A stretch of 32,000 nucleotides of DNA from an uncultured bacterium (GTDB lineage: Bacteria; GCA-001730085). The stretch is taken from positions 1 through 32,000 of the forward strand of contig CAZMGY010000025.1 of assembly GCA_964565945.1 (NCBI GenBank), in the 5' to 3' direction. Made by a program: the position numbers and the translations under genes. The notes beneath the pieces are model-generated. The model did not search any database. It was not told the origin of the DNA and saw only the letters and a list, made by a program, of their open reading frames with translations. Below are positions 94-16,545 of the stretch, piece by piece (within the stretch, counting starts at the first letter, position 1; each line of letters starts with the position of its first letter).

Positions 94-231
94 TAAAGCC
101 ACCCTTTCTTTTTTCGAAAACAGGAAGAGCCCTCTTAAAAAGAAGATCCAAAATGTATCATATCATATGGTCAATATTTTATCAACTCTTTTTTAAATTA
201 TTTAAGAATATACCTCTTCAAACAAGTTGAC

Positions 232-822: not shown

Positions 823-1759
823 CCGCGCGCACCTGATCAAGCACTGTTTGTATATCTTGAGGTAAGTCGCTCAAAAAAGTCATGAGAGTTTTACTTTGAG
901 GATGAATAAAAGCCAGCTCATGTGCATGTAAAGCTTGTCGGTTCAATTGAACCACCCTCTCTTTAATCCTTATAGCTTTTTTTCGGCTATAAACGGGATC
1001 TCCCAAAACAGGGTAACCCAAATGTTTCAAATGAACACGAATCTGATGAGTTCGACCTGTCGAAAGAATGGCCTGCAAAAGTGTAAAATGACAAAAGCGT
1101 TCTTGAATCACAAAACGGCTTATAGCTTCTTTACCACCTTGCTCAACAACCGTCATGAGTTTGCGATTGTTACGACTACGCCCCATTTGGTTACGCATCT
1201 CTAAATCTTCTTTGGGAAACATACCGCAGACAAGCGTCAGATATTTACGAGACAGGCTTCGAGACACAAGCTGATCGGCCAAAAAACGATGTGCAATATC
1301 ATGCTTGGCCACAATTATAAGACCACTTGTTTCCTTATCAAGCCTATGCACAATACCAGGACGCAATACACCATTAAGGCCCGACAAATTACGACAATGA
1401 TGCAACAGGGCGTGCACAAGCGTCCCACTATAGTGCCCACACGCAGGATGAACAACCATCCCTGCAGCTTTATTAATCACACACACGTCATCATCTTCAT
1501 AAACAATATCTAAAGGAATCTTTTCGGCTTGTAGTGTATACGCAATAGGTTCTGGAACATCTACAACAACCTTGTCCTCTGGGACCACAGAGTAATGAGC
1601 CTTCTTTAAGGCTCCGTTAACGCGCACATGTCCAGCCTGAATCAACTTTTGAACATAACTCCGAGACAAATCCATAGGCATATGCTCGGTGATAAATTTA
1701 TCTAAACGTTCCGAAACACCCTCTGTGTCTGAAACCATAACCGTGTAAACATCAGCCAT
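812..1759 (-). CDS. rluD: RluA-family 23S rRNA pseudouridine synthase (RluD-like) with an N-terminal S4 domain
   Basis: It carries the HRLDKETSGL catalytic motif, the GRTHQIRVH motif and an S4-like N-terminus (LSRSYVQKLIQAGHVRVNG). It has an ATG start, and its start overlaps the lgt stop. Confidence 0.9.
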   Translation of the reverse strand: MADVYTVMVSDTEGVSERLDKFITEHMPMDLSRSYVQKLIQAGHVRVNGALKKAHYSVVPEDKVVVDVPEPIAYTLQAEKIPLDIVYEDDDVCVINKAAGMVVHPACGHYSGTLVHALLHHCRNLSGLNGVLRPGIVHRLDKETSGLIIVAKHDIAHRFLADQLVSRSLSRKYLTLVCGMFPKEDLEMRNQMGRSRNNRKLMTVVEQGGKEAISRFVIQERFCHFTLLQAILSTGRTHQIRVHLKHLGYPVLGDPVYSRKKAIRIKERVVQLNRQALHAHELAFIHPQSKTLMTFLSDLPQDIQTVLDQVRADDV

Positions 1760-2471
1760 CTTGACACCCCTCCCGCTTTAGGAGAACAAGCCACAAGATA
1801 CACGCCACCGCAAAACACGCAACACTCGCCCATTGAGAAACACGCAGTCCATTCCAAACTCCCACATGATCACCCCTAAAAGACTCCAACACCCAACGTC
1901 CAATTGCATACATAGCCAAATAAAGGCTTAACAGCACCCCCTGTGGCTTGAGACGTTGAGAACGCAAGACAAATAACAAACCCGCCAGAACAATATTAAA
2001 AGCACTTTCATATAACTGAACAGGATATTGTCCTCCAGAATAGGCAACCCCGTAACAGCATCCATTCAAATAACATCCTAAGCGTCCCATAGCATGGGCA
2101 ATCGGAAAAAAAGGAATACTAAAATCAGCAAATTTGGGCCAGTCGTAACCTTTACGGATCACCAAAACAAACGCCAACACAAACGCAGCCATTAATCCTC
2201 CATAAAAAACTAAACCGCCCTGATGAATGTAGAGTATTTCAACCAAGTGCTGACGAAAATACGGCCATTCTTGAATCACGTAAAAAAGACGCGCGCCAAC
2301 AAGACCTGCAATCAAAACATAAAAACTAAAATCACCAATAAAGTCTGGTGAAAATCCGTAACGAGCGGACTGACGTCGTGCCAAAAAAACAACTGTTAAA
2401 AAAGCCAACGCGATCATAATCCCATAGCTATGAATAACTATTGGACCTTTTTGGAATAGAACAGGAAACAT
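1752..2471 (-). CDS. lgt: Prolipoprotein diacylglyceryl transferase
   Basis: This is a polytopic membrane protein. The N-terminus MFPVLFQKGPIVIHSYGIMIALAFL matches the Lgt consensus start, and a GRLGCYLNGCCYG motif is present. The track start (2498) is TTG; I prefer the ATG at 2471. Confidence 0.88.
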   Translation of the reverse strand: MFPVLFQKGPIVIHSYGIMIALAFLTVVFLARRQSARYGFSPDFIGDFSFYVLIAGLVGARLFYVIQEWPYFRQHLVEILYIHQGGLVFYGGLMAAFVLAFVLVIRKGYDWPKFADFSIPFFPIAHAMGRLGCYLNGCCYGVAYSGGQYPVQLYESAFNIVLAGLLFVLRSQRLKPQGVLLSLYLAMYAIGRWVLESFRGDHVGVWNGLRVSQWASVACFAVACILWLVLLKREGCQDG

Positions 2472-2881
2472 AACACCAACAACCCCATACCTATACAAAT
2501 AGCCGTATCGGCGATATTAAATACAGGCCATATACGAAAATCTAAAAAATCAATCACAGCACGAATTCGCAAACGATCGATAAGGTTTCCAATTGCGCCA
2601 CCACCAATTAAAGCATACGCCCATAAGGACAAGGGCCCCTCTTCGATGATAGCCTTTTGATAGAACACAAGCCCTGCAACTACAGCGACAGAAGTCAAAA
2701 CAAACAGCCACTGTTGATTTTGGAGCAATCCAAAAGCCGCTCCTTTATTATAAACCAATACCAAATGAAACACGGAATCAATCACAGGAACAGTATCTGC
2801 CAAATAGGCAACAGCCAACCACTTCGTCATCTGGTCAACAATAACAAGGCTAACCACAATACTCCAGAAATACACAATCAT
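2438..2881 (-). CDS. lspA: Lipoprotein signal peptidase II
   Basis: The 147-aa protein has four TM segments plus NKGAAFG and IDFLDF..WPVFNIAD motifs. Its ATG overlaps the upstream stop (ATGA). Confidence 0.9.
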   Translation of the reverse strand: MIVYFWSIVVSLVIVDQMTKWLAVAYLADTVPVIDSVFHLVLVYNKGAAFGLLQNQQWLFVLTSVAVVAGLVFYQKAIIEEGPLSLWAYALIGGGAIGNLIDRLRIRAVIDFLDFRIWPVFNIADTAICIGMGLLVLCFLFYSKKVQ

Positions 2882-3246
2882 AATTGTTCTTCGCGCTTCT
2901 CCTGACAGGGAACATAATTGGCCACATAGGGAATAGCTAACAAACGTTGCGTATGAATTTTCTCCTCACAACTCAAATAAACGCCATATTGCCCTTCCTC
3001 TATTCGTGCCAAAGCATCCTCAACCAGGGTTAACAAATCACTTTCATTCGAAGCTAAATTAAGTTGTAAATCATGATCAAAAATATCAGTTCCCAAATCT
3101 CCAATATGGCTGGGTGTCGACTGTATTGCACCACTACCTTTTTGAACATCCAAGCCAAATACACCTTCACCAAACAATTTGGACTTCACTGTTTCCCTCA
3201 TAGTTAATAACTTCTCTTGAGAGACCTGCAAATCTTTCTTTTTCAC
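2878..3246 (-). CDS. DksA/TraR-family protein with a half-degenerate zinc finger
   Basis: IGDLGTDIFDHDLQLNLASNESDLLTLVEDALARIEEGQYG resembles the DksA coiled-coil tip. In the C-terminal finger only 2 of the 4 canonical Cys are present. The GTG start overlaps the ileS stop (GTGA). Confidence 0.7.
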   Translation of the reverse strand: MKKKDLQVSQEKLLTMRETVKSKLFGEGVFGLDVQKGSGAIQSTPSHIGDLGTDIFDHDLQLNLASNESDLLTLVEDALARIEEGQYGVYLSCEEKIHTQRLLAIPYVANYVPCQEKREEQL

Positions 3247-6044
3247 AGATACTTCCCTTTCACATTAATCGAAAGCAATGAACTCACGGCATCATAACAT
3301 TTATGACACAGCTCTTTATGTTCAGAATGAGATCCAACCGTTTCACTGTAGATCCAACAACGCACGCACTTAGGCCAATCTAATTTTCTAACTTGAATCT
3401 TTAAGGCATCTCCCTTACGAATCTTGACGTTTGAAACAATGAAAATCATTGCCAAATCTTGCTCGCACTTAGACAATAGATCGTAGATGGCCTCAGGAAG
3501 TTCAAGCTCAACGGCAACTTCTAAAGAACTACCAATCTCTTTAGAACTTCTCAAAGGCTCAATCACCTTAAGAACTTCATCGCGAACAAGAGCAATATCG
3601 GCCCACTTCTGATTCAATTCTTTATCGTATAAAGAAAGATCAACCTCAGGCCAAGAAGCCTCATGAACCGATTCTGTTGTTTTCAAAGCCTGAGGTAAAT
3701 GCGACCACAATTCCTCACTGGTAAAAACTAAAACGGGTGCCAACAAACGCGTCAAAGCATCTAAAATATCAATCATCACCGTTTGGGCAGACAAACGCTC
3801 TTTCGATTTGGGTGCAGCCGTGTAAAGGCGGTCCTTAAGAATGTCCAGATAAAAAGCGCTCATATCCGAGATGCAAAACTGATAGAGCTCTTTATAAAAT
3901 TTATAAAATAAATGTTGTTCGTAATATTGACTGGCTTCCTGGATCAATTTTTGCAAACGTGATAAGGCCCAACGATCAATTGGCGTCAACTCACTGTAAG
4001 CTAAACGGTCGTTGTCCACATCAAAATCAAAGGTGTTACCCAATAAAAAGCGACACGTATTTCTTATTTTTCGGTAGACATCCACTTTTTGTTTCATAAT
4101 GTCATCCGACATGCGAATATCATCCGAATAATCGGAAGATGCAACAAATAAACGAACCAAATCGGCGCCATATTGGTCAATGATTTTCTGAGGCGCAATT
4201 ACATTCCCTACCGATTTAGACATTTTGTGCCCAGCGCCATCCACTACAAAGCCATGCGTTAATACCGTTTCAAAAGGCTCTTGCTCCAAACCTGCCATCG
4301 ATAAAAATAGCGAACTTTGAAACCACCCACGATGTTGGTCACTTCCTTCCAAATAAAGCTGCGCTGGAAACGCTAAACCTTCGGTCTGCTTCAAAACAGC
4401 ATAATGGCTTGCTCCAGAATCAAACCACACATCTAAAATGTCAGTCTCTTTTTCATACGATGTCCCTCCGCACAAAGGACATTCTTTTAAAGAACATAGT
4501 TCTTCTGAAGGTTCGGAATACCAAACATCACACCCATCTTTACGCACACGATCCGCTACCTCGCGAATCAAATCCGCTTGCAAAATAGGCGTACGACACG
4601 AATCACAATAAAACACAGGAATCGGAACACCCCAAGATCTCTGACGAGAAATACACCAATCGGGTCGATTTTTCACCATCTCGGACAAACGTGTTTGTCC
4701 CCACTCGGGCAACCATTGAACCCGTTCGATTGATTCCAAAACGCGTTCGCGCAAGCCTTGGTGATCCACATTAATAAACCATTGCTCAGTCGCACGAAAA
4801 ATAACCGCTTTGCGGCAACGCCAACAATGAGGGTAAGAGTGCTGAATATCCTCTTGATGATGCAGCACATCTAAGGATTTTAGTTTTTCGATAATAGGAG
4901 CATTGGCCGTAAAAACTTTTTGACCCGCAAATTCGGGCACCAAATCTGTAAACTCTGCACGAGCATTCACTGGTATAAACACACCTATCCCATACTCTTG
5001 GCCCACGCGAAAATCATCTTCACCATGACCTGGAGCAATATGAACACAACCTGTTCCATCTTCGACCGTTACAAAGTCGGCCAAAATCACCTGACGCTTT
5101 CCATTAAGCCCCTCTACCTGCCCCATAAAGGGATGTGCATAGGTTAGCCCCTCCAAATCACTTCCTTGAACCGTCCCCAAGACCTTATATTGATCAACAC
5201 CAGCCTTAGACATAATCGACTCGACCAGATTATGCGCCATCAGAACGGCCTCTCCCTCCAATTGAACACAGGCATATTTTAAATCGGGATGAACAGCCAC
5301 AGCCATATTAGAAGGTAATGTCCAAGGTGTTGTTGTCCAGATCATAAGAGCGAGAGATCCTTCATAATCGATTTTCAAAGAGGTGTCTCCATTAGCATGA
5401 CAAGCCAATTTTACATAAACAGACGGCGATGTATGATCACCATACTCAATTTCAGCTTCAGCCAAAGCCGTTTCGCAGTGCCCACACCAATAAATAGGTT
5501 TAAACCCCCGCTCGATATAGTTTTTATCCACCAAATTAGCGAAGACCTCTAAAATACCTGCCTCATATTCGTAATTCATCGTTAAATAAGGATGATCCCA
5601 ATGGCCCCAAATGCCCAAACGTTGAAACTCTTCACTTTGCAACTGTACAAATTCTTGGGCATAATCACGACACAGCTGACGCACTTCTAAAGGTCTTTTA
5701 TGCTCTTTCTTTTTCTTCAAACGACTCATCACTTGATGTTCAATGGGAAGACCATGACAATCCCAGCCAGGAACATAAGAAACGTAAGAACCTTTCATTA
5801 AGCGATACCGCACCACAATATCTTTCAAAATTTTGTTGAGCGCGTGCCCCATATGAATATGTCCATTCGCATAAGGAGGCCCATCATGCAAGGTGTACGA
5901 AACAGACTCATGTCTTTGGGCAAGCAATGTTTCATAAAGCTTAGACTGAGACCATTGCTCAGCCATCTTGGGCTCTTTTTGCGACAAGTTGGCCTTCATA
6001 GAAAATGAAGTTTGGGGTAAGTTAAGCGTTTCTTTGTAATTCAT
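3243..6044 (-). CDS. ileS: Isoleucyl-tRNA synthetase
   Basis: The 933-aa protein has the HIGH-type motif (NGHIHMGHALNK), KMSKS (GHKMSKSVGN) and a C-terminal Cys cluster (CVRCW...LCHKC). Confidence 0.97.
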   Translation of the reverse strand: MNYKETLNLPQTSFSMKANLSQKEPKMAEQWSQSKLYETLLAQRHESVSYTLHDGPPYANGHIHMGHALNKILKDIVVRYRLMKGSYVSYVPGWDCHGLPIEHQVMSRLKKKKEHKRPLEVRQLCRDYAQEFVQLQSEEFQRLGIWGHWDHPYLTMNYEYEAGILEVFANLVDKNYIERGFKPIYWCGHCETALAEAEIEYGDHTSPSVYVKLACHANGDTSLKIDYEGSLALMIWTTTPWTLPSNMAVAVHPDLKYACVQLEGEAVLMAHNLVESIMSKAGVDQYKVLGTVQGSDLEGLTYAHPFMGQVEGLNGKRQVILADFVTVEDGTGCVHIAPGHGEDDFRVGQEYGIGVFIPVNARAEFTDLVPEFAGQKVFTANAPIIEKLKSLDVLHHQEDIQHSYPHCWRCRKAVIFRATEQWFINVDHQGLRERVLESIERVQWLPEWGQTRLSEMVKNRPDWCISRQRSWGVPIPVFYCDSCRTPILQADLIREVADRVRKDGCDVWYSEPSEELCSLKECPLCGGTSYEKETDILDVWFDSGASHYAVLKQTEGLAFPAQLYLEGSDQHRGWFQSSLFLSMAGLEQEPFETVLTHGFVVDGAGHKMSKSVGNVIAPQKIIDQYGADLVRLFVASSDYSDDIRMSDDIMKQKVDVYRKIRNTCRFLLGNTFDFDVDNDRLAYSELTPIDRWALSRLQKLIQEASQYYEQHLFYKFYKELYQFCISDMSAFYLDILKDRLYTAAPKSKERLSAQTVMIDILDALTRLLAPVLVFTSEELWSHLPQALKTTESVHEASWPEVDLSLYDKELNQKWADIALVRDEVLKVIEPLRSSKEIGSSLEVAVELELPEAIYDLLSKCEQDLAMIFIVSNVKIRKGDALKIQVRKLDWPKCVRCWIYSETVGSHSEHKELCHKCYDAVSSLLSINVKGKYL

Positions 6045-6054
6045 AATCTAACCT

Positions 6055-6879
6055 TTATGCAGTCCATCTTTTCAAAAAAGACGTCACCAGACGACTCATT
6101 TTAGGCTCAGCCTCTTGGGCCACAGCAATAATTTCTTCAACATTTGCAGGCATCAAAGCATCTGGTAAACACATATCTGTCACACACGATATTCCTAATA
6201 CCTTCAAACCTGCATGCACCGCAACAATCACTTCGGGGACGGTCGACATTCCAATAACGTCAGCCCCCATCGCCCGCATGAATCGATACTCAGCTGCCGT
6301 TTCCAAACAAGGTCCCGTGACCCCAATATAGACCCCTCGATGAGCTTCTAAACCTTCGGTCAATGCAACCTCACAGGCCAGATCTTGACAATTCTTTGTG
6401 TAAGAGTCGGACATATCGGGAAAGCGTGGGCCTAAACGATCATCATTAGAACCCACTAAAGGGTTCACACCCATAAAATTAATATGGTCACTTATTATAA
6501 CCAAATCGCCTGTCTTGTAAAGCGGATTCAAGCCTCCCGCGGCATTCGAAACAACTAATAAATCCACGCCTAAAGCTTTCATAACACGCACAGGAAACGT
6601 AATTTGATCCAATCTATACCCTTCATAAAAGTGAAACCGGCCTTGCATCGCAACAATAGGGCAACCAGCGAGGTACCCCGCTAAAAAGTCACCTTCGTGC
6701 GACTCTACAGTGGATTGAGCAAAGTGAGGAATATCTTTATAGGCAACGCAAGCTGTTTGCTCCATTGTTTGAGCTAAATCTCCCAAACCTGTCCCTAAAA
6801 TAAGTCCCACCTTAGGAGTTACATTGATTTGAGGCTGCAAAAACTCAACCGCCTGATTGATATACTTCATTAATTCCAT
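6055..6879 (-). CDS. punA: Purine nucleoside phosphorylase (trimeric PNP/MTAP family)
   Basis: Motifs seen: LILGTGLG, RFHFYEGY, SNAAGGLNP, GPRFPDMS, GPCLETAAEYR and GADVIGMSTVPE. Confidence 0.85.
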   Translation of the reverse strand: MELMKYINQAVEFLQPQINVTPKVGLILGTGLGDLAQTMEQTACVAYKDIPHFAQSTVESHEGDFLAGYLAGCPIVAMQGRFHFYEGYRLDQITFPVRVMKALGVDLLVVSNAAGGLNPLYKTGDLVIISDHINFMGVNPLVGSNDDRLGPRFPDMSDSYTKNCQDLACEVALTEGLEAHRGVYIGVTGPCLETAAEYRFMRAMGADVIGMSTVPEVIVAVHAGLKVLGISCVTDMCLPDALMPANVEEIIAVAQEAEPKMSRLVTSFLKRWTA

Positions 6880-6897
6880 GATCGTTATCTCTTATCC

Positions 6898-7233
6898 TTA
6901 ACTTAAACTATGATCTTTGCCAATACTGCATTGAGGATCTTCCCCAGCAGGTCCAATCGTGTAGCTACCTCCAGCGAGACAGGACCCCAAAGAAGAATCC
7001 TGAGGAATGTGACCCTTAATCATGCTCCAAGAACAAATCGCGCCCTTCGGTTTTTCAGGCTCTTTAGCCCAGTGTTTTTTTGCCTCTCGTAAAATAGATA
7101 AATTATGCACACAAAAATGAGTTTCTGATTTCCGCTTAACATTCACGAAATTAGGAACAGCGATCGCGGCAAGCAACGCTAAGACCGCAACGATGATCAT
7201 AATATCCATTAGGCTAAAACCTTGCCGACCCAT
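6898..7233 (-). CDS. Prepilin-type N-terminal cleavage/methylation domain protein (pilin/pseudopilin-like)
   Basis: The N-terminus is MGRQG|FSLMDIMIIVAVLALLAAIAVPNF, a class III signal peptide. The protein is small (111 aa), and no other pilus or T2SS gene is adjacent. Confidence 0.8.
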   Translation of the reverse strand: MGRQGFSLMDIMIIVAVLALLAAIAVPNFVNVKRKSETHFCVHNLSILREAKKHWAKEPEKPKGAICSWSMIKGHIPQDSSLGSCLAGGSYTIGPAGEDPQCSIGKDHSLS

Positions 7234-7306
7234 CTATTCCCCACCTCTTCTCACCAGTAAAAAATCTATTGTATCATCCCCTTCCCTAGAAGAAAAAGCC
7301 GAACCA

Positions 7307-8305
7307 TCAGACCCAATTCAAAAGAGGTAAACAAGGAAGAGCATCTAAATTCAAAGTATCAGTATGGCCTGCTTTCCATTTTTGGTAGGCAAGGCCGCCA
7401 ATCATAGCCGCATTATCAGCCGAAAGCCCCCTGCCTGGAAATGTCACTTGAATTCCAGCGGCCTCGCTTTGTTCGAGCATCACCTCACGTAAACGGCTGT
7501 TCAGGGAGACGCCTCCTCCCACAGCAAGGTGACTCACTCCACATTGTTCAACAGCCAGCAACGATTTTTTGCAGAGCACATCCACTACGGCCTCTTGAAA
7601 CGACGCACATACGTCAGCCACATTTTCATTAGGATGATCCTTTAAATGGTAAAGAACAGCCGTTTTAAGCCCGCTAAAACTAAACGCCAAGGGGTTAGCC
7701 TTCACCTGACCACGAGGAAACTTAATTTTGTCTCGCTCCCCCTCTTTGGCAAGCTTATCAACAATAGGTCCTCCTGGATACCCTAGATCCAACATCTTGG
7801 CCACTTTGTCAAACGCTTCTCCTGCAGCATCATCACAGGTTTGCCCCAAAACACGATATGTTCCCCAAGCCGAAACCCCCGCCAACAATGTGTGCCCTCC
7901 CGAAACGATCAAACCAACACAGGGTAAAGTGGCTTTTTGCCCCATAAAATTAGCGTATATGTGAGCTTCAATATGATTGACACCAATCAAAGGCTTCTTG
8001 TAATGAAACGCTAAACTTTTAGCACAACTCAAGCCCACCATTAAAGCTCCAATCAAGCCTGGACCGTATGTAACAGCAAATGCATCAATATCATCTAACG
8101 AACAAGCGGCAACCTCAATAGCCTGATCAACAAGGGGCAACAAAGCCTCTTCATGTGCCCGACACGCCAACTCGGGCACAACACCACCAAAACGTTTGTG
8201 CAATTCAACTTGGGACGAGATAATATTGCTCAAAATACGATCACCAAACTCAACCACGGATACCGAAGTTTCATCACACGAAGTTTCAATAGCAAGAATT
8301 TTCAT
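7307..8305 (-). CDS. tsaD: tRNA N6-threonylcarbamoyladenosine synthesis protein TsaD (Kae1/Gcp)
   Basis: Motifs seen: ILAIETSCDETSV, GVNHIEAHI and GGVSLNSRLRE. The ATG overlaps the upstream stop (ATGA). Confidence 0.95.
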   Translation of the reverse strand: MKILAIETSCDETSVSVVEFGDRILSNIISSQVELHKRFGGVVPELACRAHEEALLPLVDQAIEVAACSLDDIDAFAVTYGPGLIGALMVGLSCAKSLAFHYKKPLIGVNHIEAHIYANFMGQKATLPCVGLIVSGGHTLLAGVSAWGTYRVLGQTCDDAAGEAFDKVAKMLDLGYPGGPIVDKLAKEGERDKIKFPRGQVKANPLAFSFSGLKTAVLYHLKDHPNENVADVCASFQEAVVDVLCKKSLLAVEQCGVSHLAVGGGVSLNSRLREVMLEQSEAAGIQVTFPGRGLSADNAAMIGGLAYQKWKAGHTDTLNLDALPCLPLLNWV

Positions 8306-8979
8306 CTTATATCCTTATATATGTGTTTCATTAATGGACGAGGATCAATATTCAACGTTCCCATAAGCAATAAAAACGTATTAATCATCCGTTGTTTAGT
8401 GGCACCTACTTTTTGATAGCGTCGCGAACACGCAATCACAAATTTATCTTTAAACACATGCACAGACCCCTGGTTTCTTAAACGTCGATACAAATCCACA
8501 TCTTCAAAAAAAGCCTTTTCGTCAAAACCTCCAAGCGCTTCAAAGTGTTCTCGTAACACAAAAAAACCTTGGTCTCCAAAAGAAAAACGATGAAATTGTG
8601 TCCCCCAAGAATGAATTCTATTCAAAAAAGAGTCTTCATCAAACTTTAGACGAAATCGCCCAGCTATCATCTCTGTTTCTTCGAAGCATCCACGAATGAA
8701 GCACAAAGCCTTCTCTGGCAAAGAAACATCGCAATGCAAAAAAAGAAGAATCTCTCCAAAAGTATGCCTAGCACCAGTGTTCATCTGGCACGCGCGCCCT
8801 TTCTCCGAAGACAAAACTTTAATGGGGAATTTTTGAGCCTTAGCCCAAGTATCATCGACACTTCCACCATCCACAACACAAATTTCATTGGCTCCATAAG
8901 AGAGCAAAGCCTCCAATTTCTGCTCAATGCTCACAGCTTCATTGTAAACAGGCACAATAATCGATACCGTACGACTCAT
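8302..8979 (-). CDS. Family-2 glycosyltransferase-like protein of the type reported with radical SAM/Cys-rich (ArsS-like) genes (transferase 2)
   Basis: Motifs seen: SIIVPVYNEA, EICVVDGGSVDDT, GRACQMNTGA, LLFLHCDVSLP, FGDQGFFV and ACSRRYQKVG. This matches my memory of the TIGR04283-like family. Confidence 0.75.
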   Translation of the reverse strand: MSRTVSIIVPVYNEAVSIEQKLEALLSYGANEICVVDGGSVDDTWAKAQKFPIKVLSSEKGRACQMNTGARHTFGEILLFLHCDVSLPEKALCFIRGCFEETEMIAGRFRLKFDEDSFLNRIHSWGTQFHRFSFGDQGFFVLREHFEALGGFDEKAFFEDVDLYRRLRNQGSVHVFKDKFVIACSRRYQKVGATKQRMINTFLLLMGTLNIDPRPLMKHIYKDIR

Positions 8980-9094
8980 ATTTTTCGATCCTTAACAAAC
9001 CCTATCATTATACATGGATCCAGGCTGTCGACCATCTTGATTAATTCCACCAATTCTGGTAGAGAACATTGACGTAATTCAATGTAAAAATAAT

Positions 9095-9430
9095 AAAATT
9101 GTCTTTGCTCGGCATAATCACAGGAGTTGTGGCAGGTCTTGTAGCAGTCATTCTAACATCCAGTTGTGTAAGCGCTCTTGATGCCGTATGAATAGGCGTT
9201 GGGTCCTGGATCATTTGCTACATCTTCGTAGCCTACATTAAACCTAAATTGGGATACGACGATACCTTAGACGCCTTTGGTTTTCATGAAATCGACGGTG
9301 TACGGGGAGCGCCTTGACCACAGGTCTTTGGACCTCACCAAAGTGAATTTCGACGGAGCCAAGGGCCTTTTATGGCAATCCAGAATTATTTTTGATCCAA
9401 ATCAAAGCCACTTTAAAGCCTAAAGAAGCT
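9095..9430 (+). pseudogene. amt: Ammonium transporter (Amt) fragment with an in-frame stop and frameshifts
   Basis: The + strand reads KLSLLGIITGVVAGLVAVILTSSCVSALDAV*IGVGSWIICYIFVAYIKPKLGYDDTLDAFGFHEIDGVRGA. After frame shifts it continues ALTTGLWTSPK and FYGNPELFLIQIKATL. These match the conserved AGLVaITP and GyDDsLDvfgvHgvgG blocks of Amt. Only about 110 of more than 400 codons remain. Confidence 0.7.
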
Positions 9431-9479
9431 ACTCCCGAGGCAAACACCACTTCCTCCTCCAATCACTATCACATAATAA

Positions 9480-10106
9480 TCACACTTCATTGTCGCCATC
9501 TTTCCTCAAGCTCTTCAAGTATCTCTCCAGATCCTCCACGGTATCAATATCGTACCAAGGTCTAAGCTCTTTAAAACTTAGGTTAAGTTTGTGTATGCCA
9601 GCCAAGGTTTGTGCAAAAACTCTCTTTGAACTCCATTCAATCGAATCAAACAACGCTTTATCATAAAACTTAGCCTGTACCCCTATCAAATAATATCCCC
9701 CATCTTCTGTTACGCCAATCACAACATTTTTATTTTTTAAGTGTTCATTAGCCAAATAAATCTGTTTTACAGGTAAATCAGGACTATCGCTTCCCACAAC
9801 CATCACACTTTGGTACCCTTGATTGATCACATAACGAAAACACGAATGCAATCGTTCACCTAAATCATGACCCTTTTGCTCTAACACATGTTGAGCACCT
9901 AGCCACTCCGTCCAAATGTCTGAGGATGAATTTGGAGTATGACAAAGCCATACATCGGCCGATACATGTTGAATTTTTTGCCAAAGGACCTCAACAAAGT
10001 GCCGATAATACATCAAAGCGCGATTATCGCCTATCGACTTAGCCAAACGGGTTTTGACCTTACCTAAAACAGGTTCCTTAACAAAAAATAAAAGAGCTGT
10101 CGTCAC
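9480..10106 (-). CDS. DUF2064-type transferase-like protein (transferase 1, partner of the radical SAM/Cys-rich gene)
   Basis: Motifs seen: LLFFVKEPVLGKVKTRLA, GHDLGERL, VVGSDSPDL, EDGGYYLIG, IEWSSKRV and YDIDTVEDL. The GTG start has an AGGAAGG Shine-Dalgarno sequence 7 nt upstream. Confidence 0.72.
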   Translation of the reverse strand: MTTALLFFVKEPVLGKVKTRLAKSIGDNRALMYYRHFVEVLWQKIQHVSADVWLCHTPNSSSDIWTEWLGAQHVLEQKGHDLGERLHSCFRYVINQGYQSVMVVGSDSPDLPVKQIYLANEHLKNKNVVIGVTEDGGYYLIGVQAKFYDKALFDSIEWSSKRVFAQTLAGIHKLNLSFKELRPWYDIDTVEDLERYLKSLRKDGDNEV

Positions 10107-10207
10107 AATAGGCCTTCCTAAGACGAAGACTTAAGTTGGTATATCCTCCAACGCAAATCCTTACGATTGTTCAGAGGGACATGGGGCGCTATATACGAAA
10201 ACAAAAC

Positions 10208-10297
10208 CTAAGCATAGTCGTCATCTTTAAGATCGGCATTCCCATAAAGAGCCGTCGCCATAATCGCAAAAAACAACATAATAACGCCTAATCTCAT
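10208..10297 (-). CDS. Candidate 29-codon small hydrophobic protein, translationally coupled to the radical SAM gene
   Basis: The ATG at 10297 overlaps the TGA of the upstream gene (ATGA), and AGGAG lies 7 nt upstream. The product is MRLGVIMLFFAIMATALYGNADLKDDDYA. It is below the ORF-track length cutoff. Confidence 0.3.
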   Translation of the reverse strand: MRLGVIMLFFAIMATALYGNADLKDDDYA

Positions 10298-11262
10298 AAG
10301 GTCGCTCCTGTACAACTCGATCCATAACCAGCCGTGCAACCATAACAGTAAGATCCAGTCACAATTTCATATTTGCTACGTATCACTTCATCCAAATTGT
10401 TCACTGTCATCACTCGACCATTCGAATCACGTATGGGCTGTTTCTCCTGTTGATTAAAATCACAGTGATACAAAGTTCCGTGCCAATCAACGTTGATCAA
10501 GGAACGGCACATAACCGCTTCTGCTACTTTAGTGTTAAAATGATCTGCTAACAGTTGTGTGTACGACTCTAAACGACCTTCTTTGCGCAAAAAATGTTTA
10601 AAACGACCGACTGGCAAATTAGCCAAAGCAAACAATCCCGTAAACTCTATGTCATATCTATCCCGCAATTCCTTGCGGTAGTGATCTTCAAGAATATTCT
10701 GTGGACTAGGTAAAAAATCTCCCGAAGGATTGTAAACCAAATAAAGATTCAAATCACAACCATAACCTCTTTGGTTCAATTGCCTTAATGCTTCAATGCT
10801 TTTATCAAAAACACCCTTCCCTCTTTGTTCATCCACCGTTTTTTCTGTGTAACAAGGCAACGACGCCACTAAAGTAATTTTTCGCTGAGCGTACCATTCT
10901 GGTAAATCTATCATCCCTGGTTCAAAAAAAACAGTTAAATTAGTCCGTACCATCACTCGATTCATGTAGGGTTGAGCTTGATCGACAAATGTTTGAAAGT
11001 TAGGATTCATTTCGGGAGCCCCACCCGTTATATCTAGGCAATCAATTTTATGCCTCATTATAAATGCAATGATGTTATCAAACGTGTCTTGTTCCATATT
11101 ATTGCGACCATTAGGGCTAGCAGTAACATGGCAATGAACACAGGTCTGATTGCAAAGGTTCCCCACATTGATTTGCAAAGTTTCAATTTTCTTAGGAACC
11201 ATTAAAGAAGGGTCAATAGCAAGCATGGTTTGGCGAAAGGCCTTCACTCCAGTCATGGACAT
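10294..11262 (-). CDS. arsS: Radical SAM/Cys-rich domain protein, ArsS-like
   Basis: It has the CNQTCVHCH radical SAM cluster motif and the C-terminal CYGCTAGYGSSCTG Cys-rich tail typical of the ArsS/TIGR04167-type family. The track start (11265) is TTG; I prefer the ATG at 11262, which has GGAGG 9 nt upstream. Confidence 0.8.
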   Translation of the reverse strand: MSMTGVKAFRQTMLAIDPSLMVPKKIETLQINVGNLCNQTCVHCHVTASPNGRNNMEQDTFDNIIAFIMRHKIDCLDITGGAPEMNPNFQTFVDQAQPYMNRVMVRTNLTVFFEPGMIDLPEWYAQRKITLVASLPCYTEKTVDEQRGKGVFDKSIEALRQLNQRGYGCDLNLYLVYNPSGDFLPSPQNILEDHYRKELRDRYDIEFTGLFALANLPVGRFKHFLRKEGRLESYTQLLADHFNTKVAEAVMCRSLINVDWHGTLYHCDFNQQEKQPIRDSNGRVMTVNNLDEVIRSKYEIVTGSYCYGCTAGYGSSCTGATL

Positions 11263-11588
11263 CAATAACAGCCTCCACTCAAAACAAGCTCTTCACTTGC
11301 TACAACAACAGGCTTACAGTCAAAATTCAAGGTTTCATCTGTTGTTCTTCATGGCGATAAGATAGCTAATTATTCCTTGGTCATATTCGACACCCATCAC
11401 GGGACCCTACTAATTTGGAGGCTAAAAACATATCTCACTGTTCCACATCCTAAATCAAGAACAATAAACCCCTGCATTGCTAAAGAAAGCGGTGAAGCAC
11501 AATCATAAAAATGACCCAAAACTTCGTCATCAATCATTTTCAAAAGAGTTTTAGGGTCTTCCAGAATGACATCACTTAAACAGCACCC
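11262..11588 (-). pseudogene. arsM: Arsenite S-adenosylmethionine methyltransferase (ArsM/AS3MT-like) remnant
   Basis: A single frame reads GCCLSDVILEDPKTLLKMIDDEVLGHFYDCASPLSLAMQGFIVLDLGCGTVRYVFSLQISRVP*WVSNMTKE*LAILSP*RTTDETLNFDCKPVVVASEELVLSGGCY*. This matches the ArsM blocks CC..., EVLekFYGCGSP, VLDLGCGsGrDvy and GvDMT. There are internal in-frame stops at 11397, 11370 and 11349. Only about 109 codons remain, and the terminal TGA overlaps the arsS ATG. Confidence 0.6.
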
Positions 11589-11612
11589 TTATGTTGAGGG
11601 GAAGTTTAAAAT

Positions 11613-11987
11613 TTAGTAATGCTGATGAGCTCCATCATGATCGTGCATCGCACGCTGAGCGTCAATGATTGAATGATATTTTTTAATTACATTAGGAGCG
11701 GTGTATTTCTCGGGATTGCTTTGAAACATACTCAACTGTTTTTGTGCAGGAAAATAGTAGGTTTCCCCCTTGTATTGTGCTTGAAATTTAGGATTCCCCT
11801 TCATGACATGTCCCATTTCGACCACACATACTGCACAATGGCCTTCCAATGCTACGTTATCTTTGTGTTCAACTTTTTTTTGACGATGGTCATCATTATC
11901 AAAGTGACCATAGCCTCCTCCCGAAGCCATCAAAATATGCCCCCTCATGCTCAGCCCTATAACCATCAATAACATAATTTTTTTCAT
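11613..11987 (-). CDS. Secreted His-rich YHS-like domain protein
   Basis: I prefer the start MKKIMLLMVIGLSMRGHILMA, which has a GGTGAGGG Shine-Dalgarno sequence; the track start at 12035 lies inside the sigma gene. The core GHCAVCVVEMGHVMKGNPKFQAQYKGETYYFPAQKQLSMFQSNPEKYT resembles YHS/TRASH metal-binding domains. His-rich stretches are GHFDNDDHRQKKVEHKD and MHDHDGAHQHY. Confidence 0.6.
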   Translation of the reverse strand: MKKIMLLMVIGLSMRGHILMASGGGYGHFDNDDHRQKKVEHKDNVALEGHCAVCVVEMGHVMKGNPKFQAQYKGETYYFPAQKQLSMFQSNPEKYTAPNVIKKYHSIIDAQRAMHDHDGAHQHY

Positions 11988-12015
11988 AATACCCTCACCA
12001 TTTATCACGTTAACA

Positions 12016-12603
12016 CTACTCTTTCCCCTTACCAAACCCCTCTAGACTCAAACAATCTCTTAAACGGGCTCTTGCACGGTGCAACAAAACCCACAGGTTG
12101 GTCGATGAAATACCTAAAACCTTACACACCTCTTCCGAACTGAATCCATCTACTTCCTTCATATAAAAAGCACGCGCTTGTTTATCTGGCAATACCGACA
12201 AAGAGTTTTGTAAAGTTAACCAAAACTCTTTATTCTCGGTCAACTGCGCTGGATCAAAAAACCATTCCGAAGAGGGAGTCTTCCATTGTCCATTATTTTG
12301 AAAGAGCTGAGCCAGCCACTCATCGTTCTCCACAGCATCTGTGCTTTGATACTTTTGATTTTTACGGATCAAATCTACAATTTTATGCTTCAAAATTCCT
12401 GTTAACCAGGTAAACTCCGTAGATTGACCAGCAAAATTATGCCGCGATTTAAGTGCTGCTAAAAAGGTTTCTTGCACAGCATTTTCCGCATCAGCCCGAT
12501 TCTTCAAACGAGACAAAGCAAAATAAAACAAGCGCTTTCCATAGGTATCGACCCACAAGTCGGGATCAATAGGCTCATGTTTCATATCCTTAGCCGTTGA
12601 CAT
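12016..12603 (-). CDS. ECF-type RNA polymerase sigma-70 family factor
   Basis: Region 2 is AENAVQETFLAALKS...IVDLIRK. Region 4 is the HTH SSEEVCKVLGISSTNLWVLLHRARARLRDCL. The protein is 195 aa. Confidence 0.9.
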   Translation of the reverse strand: MSTAKDMKHEPIDPDLWVDTYGKRLFYFALSRLKNRADAENAVQETFLAALKSRHNFAGQSTEFTWLTGILKHKIVDLIRKNQKYQSTDAVENDEWLAQLFQNNGQWKTPSSEWFFDPAQLTENKEFWLTLQNSLSVLPDKQARAFYMKEVDGFSSEEVCKVLGISSTNLWVLLHRARARLRDCLSLEGFGKGKE

Positions 12604-12689
12604 TCTCCATCTCCATGCTTCTTATTTACCCCTACGTGGTCAAATCCTTGCTCCTAAAGATTACATCTTTTGAGCAAAAACACGAATGT

Positions 12690-12698
12690 ATTATACCA
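12690..12698 (-). promoter_or_regulatory. Candidate extended -10 element (TGGTATAAT) upstream of the ECF sigma gene
   Basis: The minus strand reads gatcaTGgTATAATacattc about 90 nt upstream of the sigma ATG. No convincing -35 was found. Confidence 0.3.
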
Positions 12699-12863
12699 TG
12701 ATCGGTAACTCATTTTAAATAAAGGATATTAAACCATCTAATTTATCTAGCTTGATTAAGCGAAACAGAATTAAGACAATTCAAGAACACCAAAGGCTCT
12801 TGTTCATATTAAGAGTAATTCAAAGTAACAATCACTCCAAATACCCATTTCGTTCAAAATTAC

Positions 12864-13034
12864 CTAGATTTTCTTATAGTTTTGTCCCGTTTGGAGCAAA
12901 CGGCTTTGTTCAGATAAAGCCAAAACAAGTTTTTTCTCTGTAATGAAGCCACACTCCAAAGCGATTTGTCCAAAGTCTTTTTTACAAAATGACCAGATAT
13001 TCCCAAGTTCCCCTTTTTTTGTTAAACTGCACAA
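12864..13034 (-). other. Short frame with a GspE-N/T2SSE_N-like repeat motif; possible gene remnant or small ORF
   Basis: The TTG-initiated frame reads LCSLTKKGELGNIWSFCKKDFGQIALECGFITEKKLVLALSEQSRLLQTGQNYKKI*. After the stop it continues VILNEMGIWS, echoing the repeated lGeiLve.G.it.eqL..AL motif. It has no ATG and no Shine-Dalgarno sequence. Confidence 0.2.
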
Positions 13035-13121
13035 AGTTGCTTTTGCATTAAGGTCTTAGCATATTTGCAGCAAAAAAAGCAAAACTAACATTTTGACAAT
13101 CAAATACAAGGATACAGAGTC

Positions 13122-13535
13122 ATGGTTTCTACCGAAAATATTGATTTGGATTTCATTTTTGATAAACAAAGAGAACTCAACACACGCATTGAACCCGACC
13201 TCTACGAAAAGATGTCCGACCCAGACTTTCGTCGCCGTTGGTTTTTGAATTACACCTTAGCTTTGCAACAAGAAATTGCCGAAGCCATCGATAGCACACA
13301 ATGGAAGTGGTGGAAAAAAGGCGAAGATGACTGGGACAACATTAAAATTGAACTGGTCGACATGCTTCACTTTTGGATCAGCATGTGCCAAGTAGCTGGC
13401 ATGGATGCTCAAGAAGTTAAAGAGCTTTATCTTAAAAAAAACCAACTCAACCACACCCGTCAAGATCAAGGTTACAAAGAAGGAACCTATCAAAAAGTTG
13501 TCAATGGTCAAGAAGATAATCAAGCTCTTCTTTAG
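13122..13535 (+). CDS. All-alpha dimeric dUTPase / MazG-like NTP pyrophosphohydrolase
   Basis: QRELNTRI...LALQQEIAEAIDSTQWKWWKK...ELVDMLHFWISM matches the dimeric dUTPase (dUTPase_2-type) pattern. It is the only clear + strand gene within the first 30 kb. Confidence 0.7.
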   Translation: MVSTENIDLDFIFDKQRELNTRIEPDLYEKMSDPDFRRRWFLNYTLALQQEIAEAIDSTQWKWWKKGEDDWDNIKIELVDMLHFWISMCQVAGMDAQEVKELYLKKNQLNHTRQDQGYKEGTYQKVVNGQEDNQALL

Positions 13536-13921
13536 AGATTAAAGACCTCTTTAACCTTATTGCGAATGATATCACGGACTTGGGCAAACTTTTCTGGATC
13601 CATGTGTTTAGGATCTGGTATGCCCCAGTCTAAGCGGTTTTTAGCTCGCACCACTGGACACGCATCCTCACAGCCCATAGTAATGGCATATTCATACTTG
13701 ACCTGAGGAATCTCATCAAGTGATTTAGACCCCTGCATACTCAGGTCATAGCCTACTTCGGCCATCGAAACAATTGCTTTGGGATTAACTTTTCCAGAAA
13801 CTTTTGAACCCGAGCTAAAAATCTCCCAGCCTTCAGGAGCTAACATATGCGCAAAGCCTTCAGCCATTTGAGAGCGACACGAATTTTCAACACAAATAAA
13901 CACGACATACTTTTTATCCAT
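13532..13921 (-). CDS. arsC: Arsenate reductase, LMW-PTP (thioredoxin-coupled) type
   Basis: It has the VFICVENSCRSQMAEGF P-loop (CX5R) and a downstream Cys pair (MGCEDACP). The protein is 129 aa. Confidence 0.88.
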   Translation of the reverse strand: MDKKYVVFICVENSCRSQMAEGFAHMLAPEGWEIFSSGSKVSGKVNPKAIVSMAEVGYDLSMQGSKSLDEIPQVKYEYAITMGCEDACPVVRAKNRLDWGIPDPKHMDPEKFAQVRDIIRNKVKEVFNL

Positions 13922-13923
13922 TA

Positions 13924-14097
13924 CTATATCCTTTCGTTAACGACAAGAAGCTCCTGAACGTATACACAAACAGCTTTGTCTTTTCTAATTAAATTTTTGT
14001 TAGTACTTGTTAACGTTGGATAAATCACATCTTTAGAAAATTTGGCCAAGCGCTCCAAGACCTCCCAAACACACTCATCCCAAGACAATATATTGCC
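13924..14097 (-). pseudogene. Possible truncated ArsR-family HTH remnant directly upstream of arsC
   Basis: The 57-codon open frame reads GNILSWDECVWEVLERLAKFSKDVIYPTLTSTNKNLIRKDKAVCVYVQELLVVNERI*. It aligns loosely with the ArsR core LS..gElCVcdL...L..Sqp.iS.HL..L...GLi..rK.G..V.Y. The N-terminal ~45 residues and key residues are missing, and the stop lies 2 nt before the arsC ATG. Confidence 0.35.
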
Positions 14098-14116
14098 TCA
14101 CGAGCTCTATAAAATC

Positions 14117-14797
14117 CTAGACTCGTATCGCTCGCAACATATGATGCTTACGAGGAGATCCTTGCAAACGCTCTAAAGAAAAACCCACCTCTTTCAATGC
14201 CTGCTTCACCGTTCCACGTGATGCATAGGTCACCACGACACCTCCTGGTTTCAGGGACTCATAGATGTTACGAAAAACATCAACCGTCCACAACTCTGGC
14301 TGAACACCTGGAGAAAAGGCATCAAAATAGACAAGGTCATACACGTTTTTTTCCATAAAAAACTCTAGCAAAGATTCTTGTTTTTTATGAAAAGAAAAAC
14401 GATCCGACAAAGAATGTTCAATCCCCCAGGAGCAATAATGCATCTTATCAAAAACCTCTTTGTTAGCAACGTCCAGCTGCAACAATTCCCAATAGTTCAG
14501 CGATTGATATTGCTCCATTGTTAAAGGATCTATTTCGAGAGTTGTATAATCAACATGCCAATGAACCTGTGCCAAGCTTTCCAAATAGGTTAAAATCGCG
14601 TTCAAACCTGTTCCAAAACCCATTTCTAAAATCGAAAACTTGCTTTGCTTTTGAGCCATATAGTGTAACCCACTAGAAATATAAACATGTCGTGATTCAG
14701 CAATGGCCCCAAACCACGAATGATAATACTCATCCATATCGGGCAAATATATCGTGTAAGAACCCTCTTCTGTTTTGAATAATTCTTTACGATTCAT
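14117..14797 (-). CDS. MnmC-type (DUF752) SAM-dependent tRNA mnm5s2U34 methyltransferase domain protein
   Basis: Motifs seen: YHSWFGAIAESRHVY, ILEMGFGTGLNA, VYFDAFSPGVQPELWT, TYASRGTVKQALKEVGF and PRKHHMLRA. Confidence 0.75.
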   Translation of the reverse strand: MNRKELFKTEEGSYTIYLPDMDEYYHSWFGAIAESRHVYISSGLHYMAQKQSKFSILEMGFGTGLNAILTYLESLAQVHWHVDYTTLEIDPLTMEQYQSLNYWELLQLDVANKEVFDKMHYCSWGIEHSLSDRFSFHKKQESLLEFFMEKNVYDLVYFDAFSPGVQPELWTVDVFRNIYESLKPGGVVVTYASRGTVKQALKEVGFSLERLQGSPRKHHMLRAIRV

Positions 14798-14806
14798 ATA
14801 TTTCTA

Positions 14807-16084
14807 TTACACTGACGATGATGATTCCAAAAGAGCATCGCTCTCCTCGGTCTCTGAACTCACTAACGATTTAGGTCTTTTTTCCAATTGAGCAACATTG
14901 TCAACATCACTCTTCGAGGATATCCCCAAATCCTTGAATTTACGAACCGAAACCAAAACCCGACTTTCCAGGCTGGCAACGGATTGATTAAACGCGTCCG
15001 TAGCTTTTTCAAGAGACCGCCCCACTTTGCTATAATGGTCGACAAATTTAGCCAACCGTTCATACAACTCAGCACCTAACTGGCTGATTTCTTGGGCATT
15101 ATGGGTCAGCTGTTCTTGACGCCAACCATAAGACACAGCTCGTAATAGTGCAATCAAAGTAGTTGGTGTTGAAATAATCACTTTCTGATGAATCCCATCT
15201 TCAATCAGGTTCTTCTCGAACTCCACCGCCACGCTAAAAAAAGATTCCCCAGGAATAAACATCACCACAAAGTCAAGACTTTCTTCGAATTGATCCCAAT
15301 AAGATTTCTTGGCCAACCGTCGCATATGGTGCACCACATGCTGCGCGTGTCTCCTTAAACATTGCTCTTTTTCTTCGTCACTTTCAGCCTCTAAAGCCTC
15401 TAAATAAGCCTGCAAGGGCACCTTAGCATCGACAACAATCTTTCGGTTGTCAGGTAAATGAACCATCATATCGGGTCGCAAAAGCCCTTCGCCCCTATTC
15501 ACCGTCGTTTGTTCATAAAAATCACAATGCTCAATAAGTCCTGCCAACTCCGCAACACGCTTTAGAGTCATTTCTCCCCACCGCCCACGCACCTGAGGTT
15601 TTTTTAAGGCAGAGACAAGGTTGCCTGTCTCTTTTTTGAGTTCGCGATTACTTTCTAATAAAAAACGCAACTGTTCTTCCAAGCCACCATACGTTTTTTG
15701 CCTTGTTTCCTCTAGCTTTTGGTTCTGCTCTTCAACCTTCTTCAACATATCCTGAATTGGCTGAACCAGATGGGCAATGCTATCCTCTTTTTGATTCAGC
15801 TTACCCTCGGCTTTGAGCAAAACCTTTTCCAAAGACGACTGAGCCATTTGCATAAACACAGAATGATTGCTCTCCAATGCTTTTTGGGACAAAACTTTAA
15901 AAGTATCACCTAAGGCATTTTGCATATCAGCACTGCGTTTATATTCTTGTTCGAGATTTTTAAGAGATGTTTCTAGCTCGATTTGAGTCTTCAAGTATTG
16001 GTGTTTCTGCTGAATGAAACGCCAATAGGCAATGGCCGAAGCCACAGCAAAACCCAGTAAACAATAAAGCCAAGATGCCTTCAT
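14807..16084 (-). CDS. rmuC: DNA recombination protein RmuC
   Basis: It has an N-terminal TM segment, a long coiled coil, and VVDAKVPLQAYLEA, MFIPGESFF and ISTPTTLIALLRAV motifs. I prefer the ATG at 16084 (GGAGG 7 nt upstream) to the track TTG at 16120. Confidence 0.88.
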   Translation of the reverse strand: MKASWLYCLLGFAVASAIAYWRFIQQKHQYLKTQIELETSLKNLEQEYKRSADMQNALGDTFKVLSQKALESNHSVFMQMAQSSLEKVLLKAEGKLNQKEDSIAHLVQPIQDMLKKVEEQNQKLEETRQKTYGGLEEQLRFLLESNRELKKETGNLVSALKKPQVRGRWGEMTLKRVAELAGLIEHCDFYEQTTVNRGEGLLRPDMMVHLPDNRKIVVDAKVPLQAYLEALEAESDEEKEQCLRRHAQHVVHHMRRLAKKSYWDQFEESLDFVVMFIPGESFFSVAVEFEKNLIEDGIHQKVIISTPTTLIALLRAVSYGWRQEQLTHNAQEISQLGAELYERLAKFVDHYSKVGRSLEKATDAFNQSVASLESRVLVSVRKFKDLGISSKSDVDNVAQLEKRPKSLVSSETEESDALLESSSSV

Positions 16085-16146
16085 AGCCACACCTCCATCT
16101 ATAGGCTTTAGTGGCGTCAATCACATATTTGGCAATTAACATCCCT

Positions 16147-16545
16147 TCAAGCAAAGGATAAGAATTTTTTCCCTAACAAGAACCGATCCTTGTAAGTTTC
16201 AGGCTCACCTTCGGAATCATTGCAAACCAGGTACTTAACCAGAGCTTGCTCACCACGCATATCACTCCATTTGACAAAAGCCAGAAACACAGCTCTTCCG
16301 CGTCCACAAAGGCCAGTTTTTTTGATTTTTTCAATCACTTATTCCAGGCTCATGCCCCACACACGCTTAATACCCTTAAGCCCCTTTGTCAACGCCCTAT
16401 TATAACAAAGCCTACCATCCAATCCAATTAGAAAATAAAGTCCTGCTCCAACAGGAGCCTGTGGCATTAACTGTTTGTGATGCAAAATGGGAAGCACCTC
16501 CTTGTCGGAAAACAGGGTCCCCTTTTTTTTGTAATAACCATCCAA
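16147..16545 (-). pseudogene. NuoF/HydB-family (51-kDa NADH-binding flavoprotein subunit) N-terminal remnant
   Basis: The two track ORFs are in one frame, split by an in-frame TAA at 16339-16341: ...LDGRLCYNRALTKGLKGIKRVWGMSLE*VIEKIKKTGLCGRGRAVFLAFVKWSDMRGEQALVKYLVCNDSEGEPETYKDRFLL. This matches SGLRGRGGAGFPTGlKWsfm....YlvcNaDEsEPGtfKDR. It stops after about 130 of roughly 420 codons. Confidence 0.75.

Follow-up and report, generated by a model that had tools for sequence, protein, structure and literature searches.

The arsenosugar pathway of Synechocystis sp. PCC 6803 involves the proteins SsArsM and SsArsS (Xue et al., 2019 and Cheng et al., 2021, as cited in PMC8552651, PMC12159101 and PMC13598754), and SsArsS works together with SsArsM (PMC8552651). 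ArsS adenosylates dimethylarsenite, DMAs(III), to 5'-deoxy-5'-dimethylarsinoyl-adenosine, DDMAA (PMC13598754; Cheng et al., 2021, as cited in PMC12159101 and PMC13598754), an activity that has been characterized for the Synechocystis enzyme only (PMC13598754). NCBIfam places ArsS (TIGR04167) alongside two 'arsenosugar biosynthesis glycosyltransferases' (TIGR04282 and TIGR04283), whose names rest on gene association; our literature search turned up no study of what reaction either partner transferase carries out. Here we describe a locus in which arsS and both partner genes (together, the trio) are intact and the adjacent methyltransferase gene arsM is a pseudogene. It lies on a 32-kb stretch of DNA from an uncultured bacterium (GenBank assembly GCA_964565945.1, contig CAZMGY010000025.1, positions 1 to 32,000), referred to here as the window; L-numbers denote the contigs and loci used for comparison. 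The lineage is non-cyanobacterial, and the arsenosugar pathway is known here from genes alone. We consider it fairly probable that the locus represents the remains of a larger arsenic/arsenosugar island in a clonal, sparsely sampled and gene-losing lineage, with the trio kept by selection for its usual chemistry.

Families were assigned by Pfam and NCBIfam profile searches with the NCBI curated cut-offs, and all three trio proteins scored above them, as anticipated in the initial annotation, which had been made from the sequence alone. The window ArsS (404.6 bits against TIGR04167, cut-off 300; Pfam DUF3641 163.7 bits, Radical_SAM 38.2 bits) shares with SsArsS the family, the CX3CX2C motif and the Cys-rich C-terminal domain. 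Its CX3CX2C motif (C37-N-Q-T-C41-V-H-C44, CNQTCVHC) is invariant in the alignment, and the C-terminal tail CYGCTAGYGSSCTG is present. Within the C-terminal motif HC-x2-CTAG-x-GSSCTG the cysteines C306, C309 and C317 and the TAG-GSSCTG stretch are kept, and the preceding His is replaced by Tyr. The best matches of the protein among the species-representative genomes listed were to metagenome-assembled genomes (MAGs) of Planctomycetota/Pirellulales at about 50% identity, in contrast to the cyanobacterial affiliation of SsArsS.

The TIGR04282 protein (DUF2064; 188.7 bits, cut-off 134) matched PDB 3CGX, a structural-genomics DUF2064 structure labelled 'putative nucleotide-diphospho-sugar transferase' and carrying no assigned function, over nearly its full length (E=5.5e-41). 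It is distantly similar to CofC, the 2-phospho-L-lactate guanylyltransferase, but at 30 bits is far under the CofC cut-off of 105 and is not a CofC. The TIGR04283 protein, a GT2 glycosyltransferase (194.4 bits, cut-off 182), shares the GT-A N-terminal nucleotide-sugar-binding half with the mycofactocin glycosyltransferase MftF and with dolichol-phosphate mannose synthase (PDB 5MLZ). However, it scored 55 bits against the MftF cut-off of 280, and this match spans the first ~100 residues only. Both partner genes lie within 3 kb of arsS, and the trio of the window differs from the NCBIfam grouping in being split: TIGR04283 stands apart, coupled to tsaD, on the far side of the scar left by an amt-glnK operon.

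The remnant of arsM was identified by tblastn with the intact ArsM proteins of two relatives, L007 and L008 (E=1e-13, residues 25–82, 50% identity); over the same residues those two proteins are 69% identical to each other. The initial annotation had recognized this remnant but ended it at 11588, whereas the similarity extends nine bases further, to 11597. What is kept corresponds to residues ~25–116 and the last ~23 codons; the first 24 codons have been deleted together with the upstream region, as have residues ~117–325. Two in-frame stops (at about codon 26 and in the DMT-x-EQL stretch) and at least three shifts of the reading frame were found, there is no start codon, and the motif YGCGSP is altered to YDCASP. 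Among the positions that are at least 95% invariant in an alignment of 121 ArsM proteins, 9 of 35 are changed in the remnant, whereas real ArsMs deviate at 0.26 of them on average and at no more than 2. This corresponds to roughly 0.13 neutral substitutions per site after the release from constraint. With these lesions and changed residues, arsM is an old, long-dead pseudogene. Its 3' tail still holds the ribosome-binding site of arsS and the TGATG stop/start overlap, and for arsS an ATG start at 11262 is more likely than the TTG at 11265.

In the public collection, the ArsS proteins most similar to that of the window are encoded on L007 and L008 (62% and 60% identity). On both contigs arsM is intact, at 350 and 349 aa, and its end overlaps the start of arsS, which answers the question, raised in the initial annotation, of whether arsM is intact in relatives. 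This arrangement, with arsM directly upstream of and overlapping arsS, is the likeness of the window's close relatives to the Synechocystis pathway; the window differs in having arsM as a pseudogene. Throughout the ArsS subclade of the window (L007, L008, L009 and L031) arsM is adjacent to arsS, and the loss in the window is thus a real lineage-specific event. L007 is further syntenic with the window over rmuC, Methyltransf_30, LMWPc/ArsC-like, dUTPase and YHS genes. As this is a long-read contig of 2x coverage, on which rmuC and Complex1_51K are each split into several open reading frames (ORFs; 4318–5530 and 2884–4209), gene integrity in L007 is to be read with care, the splits probably being assembly errors and not pseudogenes; arsM, arsS and the DUF2064 gene of L007 are nevertheless full length.

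Further losses are indicated on the other side of arsS. In L007 a DUF547 gene, a transposase and a gene for a VTT/DedA-family membrane protein lie between arsS and the DUF2064 gene, and in L008 a VTT/DedA gene; all of them are missing from the window. Judged by housekeeping genes, the nearest relative is L091 (SRR28385527; 79% identity in TsaD, 78% in purine nucleoside phosphorylase, 73% in IleRS), which carries an intact amt gene (408 aa) and glnK (P-II) on the opposite strand, upstream of the GT2-tsaD pair. At the same position the window holds an amt fragment that aligns with residues 256–360 of the L091 Amt in two frames (70% and 50% identity, tblastn), with two in-frame stops, one frameshift and no full-length transporter ORF. 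Since the intact operon occupies this position in L091, the fragment is best viewed as the scar of a lost amt-glnK operon, neither an insertion nor a component of the cluster. The intact arsM of L007 and L008 and the amt-glnK operon of L091 together indicate that the window lineage lost arsM, amt-glnK and the gene following arsS.

We then asked how the trio fared beside these losses. In its 2,274 bp no lesion was found, whereas the arsM and amt scraps hold at least eight stops or frameshifts in ~650 bp. The density in the scraps predicts ~28 lesions for the trio, and even a loss of constraint lasting only one tenth of the time since the death of arsM would be expected to leave ~3 (P ~0.05). 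Columns at least 90% conserved among homologs deviate in 3 of 82 cases in ArsS (H305Y among them), in none of 18 in the DUF2064 protein and in 1 of 22 in GT2 (S184C), together 4/122 compared with 9/35 invariant residues in the arsM scrap; the trio values lie within the range of other family members. Tajima relative-rate comparisons with many outgroups (window value first) gave 25.6 against 21.4 and 23.3 against 27.4 for ArsS and 13.9 against 20.1 and 13.0 against 12.0 for DUF2064, and GT2 had 13.4 unique changes in the window against 19.2 in L091; thus none of the three proteins shows a rate excess on the window branch. The profile hidden Markov model (HMM) scores of the window proteins are similar to those of relatives, including the relatives that kept arsM: 404.6 against 400.6 and 410.5 bits for ArsS, 188.7 against 187.9 and 147.5 for DUF2064, and 194.4 against 191.0 for the GT2 ortholog in L091. 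In addition, the deletions end just outside the start region of each trio gene. Because lesions, conserved residues, relative rates and HMM scores agree, it is well supported that purifying selection has acted on the trio during most, if not all, of the period following the death of arsM.

These data bear directly on whether the locus is simply in neutral decay, with a pathway already useless and three genes not yet hit. Gene loss in the lineage is evident from arsM, amt-glnK, a nuoF-like gene and the former neighbor downstream of arsS, and two near-invariant residues of the trio have changed, as would fit such a process, but the complete lack of lesions where many are expected, the low loss of conserved columns, the lack of branch acceleration and the deletions that halt just short of the start regions make neutral decay improbable. 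The initial annotation had been correct in describing a destroyed methyltransferase beside three full-length genes; its suggestion that decay of the whole locus had only just begun is disfavored by the heavy erosion of arsM next to a trio with neither lesions nor acceleration.

Intact frames could also be kept for the sake of neighboring genes, if coupling to tsaD or polarity forbade frame-breaking mutations. tsaD is an essential tRNA t6A gene, and the stop of the GT2 gene overlaps its start as ATGA in both the window and L091. However, GT2 alone could qualify, as downstream of arsS and DUF2064 there is no essential gene, only the dead amt on the other strand. Moreover, coupling guards the frame but leaves the protein sequence free to change, yet conserved residues have been kept and HMM scores have not fallen, and in arsS and DUF2064 the catalytic residues are conserved and the substitution rate is normal. 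We regard this explanation as very improbable.

To place the loss of arsM in a broader context, at least 80 arsS loci from species-representative genomes were surveyed, searching with the ArsM proteins of relatives and the partner proteins of the window. All counts that follow are among the matches listed, and all of these loci are at most 52% identical to the window. Thirty-five loci had 5 kb or more on either side; of these, seven had an arsM-like gene in the fetched flanks and 13 had both partner transferases, and eight of these 13 full trios had no arsM in the fetched flanks. In three loci the two transferases are fused into a single ORF of 440–449 aa directly after arsS (L055 10932–12164, L078 10933–12243 and L085 10966–12231), all in PVC-group MAGs (Planctomycetaceae, Pirellulaceae and Limisphaerales). 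Gene fusion would tie the two transferases together functionally, and the fusions, with the frequency of trios lacking a nearby arsM, suggest that the trio is a tighter unit than the arsM-arsS pair, arsM usually being elsewhere or absent. The window is therefore not a new kind of system, as most arsS clusters elsewhere also have no neighboring arsM.

The survey is in line with simple redundancy, in which an intact arsM elsewhere in the genome made the local copy dispensable and left the pathway unchanged. Redundancy is also fully compatible with strong selection on the trio. Against it, the arsM remnant is the sole ArsM-like match within the window, and in a search for a second arsM the best 120 matches to a relative's ArsM (61–68% identity) were all from other organisms, none showing the source signature of this one (NCBI plus Logan, 12–25 contigs), which is weak counterevidence because a divergent copy would be missed. 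We rate redundancy as a serious possibility, somewhat short of an even chance.

Alternatively, the trio may work in a cell without any ArsM, salvaging methylated arsenic from a host or neighboring microbes into arsenosugar-type compounds, or acting on a substrate with an origin other than ArsM. Such a function would fit with selection on the trio after the death of arsM, with the many trios in other genomes that lack a nearby arsM and with the uncharacterized chemistry of the partner transferases. If true, it is the trio, and not the arsM-arsS pair, that would function as a self-sufficient unit. However, the only characterized ArsS uses DMAs(III) (PMC13598754), the ancestral arsM of this clade overlapped arsS, and arsenic genes surround the cluster (ArsC-like, and a MIP-family channel gene in L007), which points to arsenic chemistry. 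In our assessment an ArsM-free function is rather unlikely. The initial annotation had proposed that the trio has a function independent of arsM, and the part of this that stands is selection in the absence of an adjacent arsM; an uncharacterized arsM-independent pathway is neither demonstrated nor needed, because unlinked arsM genes are common. The annotation's description of ArsS as acting on methylated arsenic made by ArsM likewise agrees with the activity published for Synechocystis.

Under the favored reading, of an eroded arsenic island with a selected trio, the ancestral layout would have been YHS, arsM, arsS, a membrane or DUF547 gene, and TIGR04282, with a TIGR04283-tsaD unit beyond a divergently oriented amt-glnK operon. 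Deletions and point lesions would then have destroyed arsM, amt-glnK and the gene after arsS, with the L007-type aquaglyceroporin gene also missing, while purifying selection would have kept arsS, TIGR04282 and TIGR04283 with their translation-initiation regions. By analogy with the Synechocystis enzyme, the window ArsS would use a 5'-deoxyadenosyl radical to adenosylate dimethylarsenite to 5'-deoxy-5'-dimethylarsinoyl-adenosine, and the two transferases may process this arsenic-bearing riboside further. Their nucleotidyltransferase-like and GT-A folds suggest an activation step followed by glycosyl transfer. As the adjacent arsM is dead, dimethylarsenite would have to come from elsewhere, either from an unlinked arsM or as methylated arsenic from a host or neighboring microbes.

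Several points weigh against this interpretation. The source of methylated arsenic stays between those two candidates, an unlinked arsM or the outside of the cell, and the absence from the window of the arsenic channel gene found in L007 fits poorly with arsenic uptake from outside. The roles of the transferases are inferred solely from fold and gene association. Two substitutions lie at near-invariant sites, and either could impair activity: ArsS H305Y (codon at 10348–10350), directly before the first C-terminal Cys, at a position where 118 of 120 homologs, both close relatives among them, have His, and GT2 S184C, where all 20 others have Ser. The ArsS change might reflect either a shift of function specific to this lineage or the onset of damage. 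As to rates, within-species dN/dS gives no signal, the available contigs being 99.98–100% identical, and dS against L091 is saturated (1.9–3.0), so that only the ranking of dN is usable. In this ranking GT2 has a dN of 0.40 against L091, compared with 0.165–0.245 for the flanking tsaD, purine nucleoside phosphorylase, ileS and pilin-like ORF.

The locus can be viewed as a natural knockout of arsM whose three companion genes have evidently been kept under selection, and such selection beside a dead arsM argues that the value of the trio is independent of the adjacent methyltransferase gene. By itself it leaves existing knowledge unchanged, as the families are already named and an unlinked arsM is a plausible ordinary explanation. 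The questions on which it bears are the steps of arsenosugar synthesis after ArsS and the roles of the two widely conserved transferases, and together with the arsM-less clusters of other genomes it gives reason to ask whether bacteria can use methylated arsenic from other organisms to make arsenosugars.

The features of the cluster and its surroundings are listed in Table 1. In order of transcription, the minus-strand region 7307–12603 comprises the ECF sigma, YHS, arsM remnant, arsS, 29-codon ORF, DUF2064, GT2 and tsaD elements, with the amt scrap on the plus strand between DUF2064 and GT2. The elements named in the initial annotation were all found on the strands given there, among them the remains of arsM and amt, the 29-codon ORF and the ATGA overlap that joins GT2 to tsaD.

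Table 1. Features of the arsS locus and flanking genes in the window.
Feature	Coordinates	Strand	Remarks
tsaD	7307-8305	minus	TIGR03723 410 bits (cut-off 296); translationally coupled to upstream GT2
TIGR04283-family GT2 glycosyltransferase gene	8302-8979	minus	225 aa; intact; ArsS partner
amt pseudogene scrap	9102-9415	plus	Pfam Ammonium_transp PF00909, E=1.8e-14, profile positions 248-328 of 399
TIGR04282 (DUF2064, CofC/MobA-like) transferase gene	9480-10106	minus	208 aa; intact; ArsS partner
29-codon hydrophobic ORF	10208-10297	minus	encodes MRLGVIMLFFAIMATALYGNADLKDDDYA; ATG overlaps arsS stop (ATGA)
arsS	10294-11262	minus	intact; radical SAM and DUF3641 Cys-rich C-terminal domain; TIGR04167
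arsM pseudogene	11262-11597	minus	tblastn/local alignment with ArsM of L007 and L008
YHS-domain protein gene	11613-12035	minus	Pfam/NCBIfam matches
ECF sigma factor gene	12016-12603	minus	Pfam/NCBIfam matches
LMWPc/ArsC-like phosphatase gene	13532-13921	minus	Pfam PF01451; intact

The 29-codon ORF had no Pfam match. The same 4-nt overlap after arsS is found in relatives, with a DUF547 gene in L007 and a VTT/DedA-family gene in L008, and from this position the ORF is possibly the stump of a gene that once followed arsS. Its similarity to DUF547 N-termini was not significant (shuffle p 0.06–0.9). Comparison with VTT/DedA proteins gave p 0.006–0.05, but different transmembrane helices were matched in different proteins, which indicates hydrophobic composition and not homology.

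Upstream of the remnant, the ECF sigma gene overlaps the YHS gene by 20 nt. The YHS gene stands directly 5' of arsM in L007 (L007 8295–8827) and directly 5' of the arsM remnant and arsS in the window. Judged by spacing, the two genes are probably the upstream part of a transcription unit that now reads into arsS, and the pair may serve the arsenic island in regulation or metal binding. The YHS protein is secreted, with a weak match to the 'YHS domain-containing (seleno)protein' model. A scan for promoters and terminators returned consensus-level matches only, not usefully above shuffled expectation.

The LMWPc/ArsC-like protein scored 90–95 bits against the NCBIfam arsenate reductase models, under their equivalog cut-offs. 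Its L007 ortholog (60% identity) is located after a MIP-family (aquaglyceroporin-like) gene, which lies between the Methyltransf_30 and ArsC-like LMWPc genes of L007, and the phosphatase gene is a survivor of the ancestral arsenic island. At the position of the MIP gene the window has a 195-bp gap (13922–14116) in which no remnant was detectable. A further scrap resembling NuoF/Complex1_51K lies beside rmuC (16101–16383, minus strand), with a decayed motif GLCGRGRAVF...YLVCNDSEGEPETYKDR followed by a stop. It matches the corresponding L007 genes at E=9e-18 and is another pseudogene within the same 32 kb, from the same process of gene loss as arsM and amt. The purine nucleoside phosphorylase gene (6055–6879) was considered as a pathway member and not counted in the cluster, as it has the same place relative to tsaD and ileS in L091.

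Contigs from at least eight SRA runs (Logan; L001–L006, L089 and L090) are 99.98–100% identical to the window, with at most one single-nucleotide polymorphism in up to 16 kb (window 112–16044), and none of the contigs carrying the window proteins that were checked extends beyond ~36 kb. These observations suggest that the organism is highly clonal, may live in association with a host and has repeats on either side of the region. Nearly all genes of the window are on the minus strand, and the GC skew is ~-0.2 throughout positions 1–30000, changing sign only past ~30 kb, near the tmRNA gene (30581–31016, plus strand).

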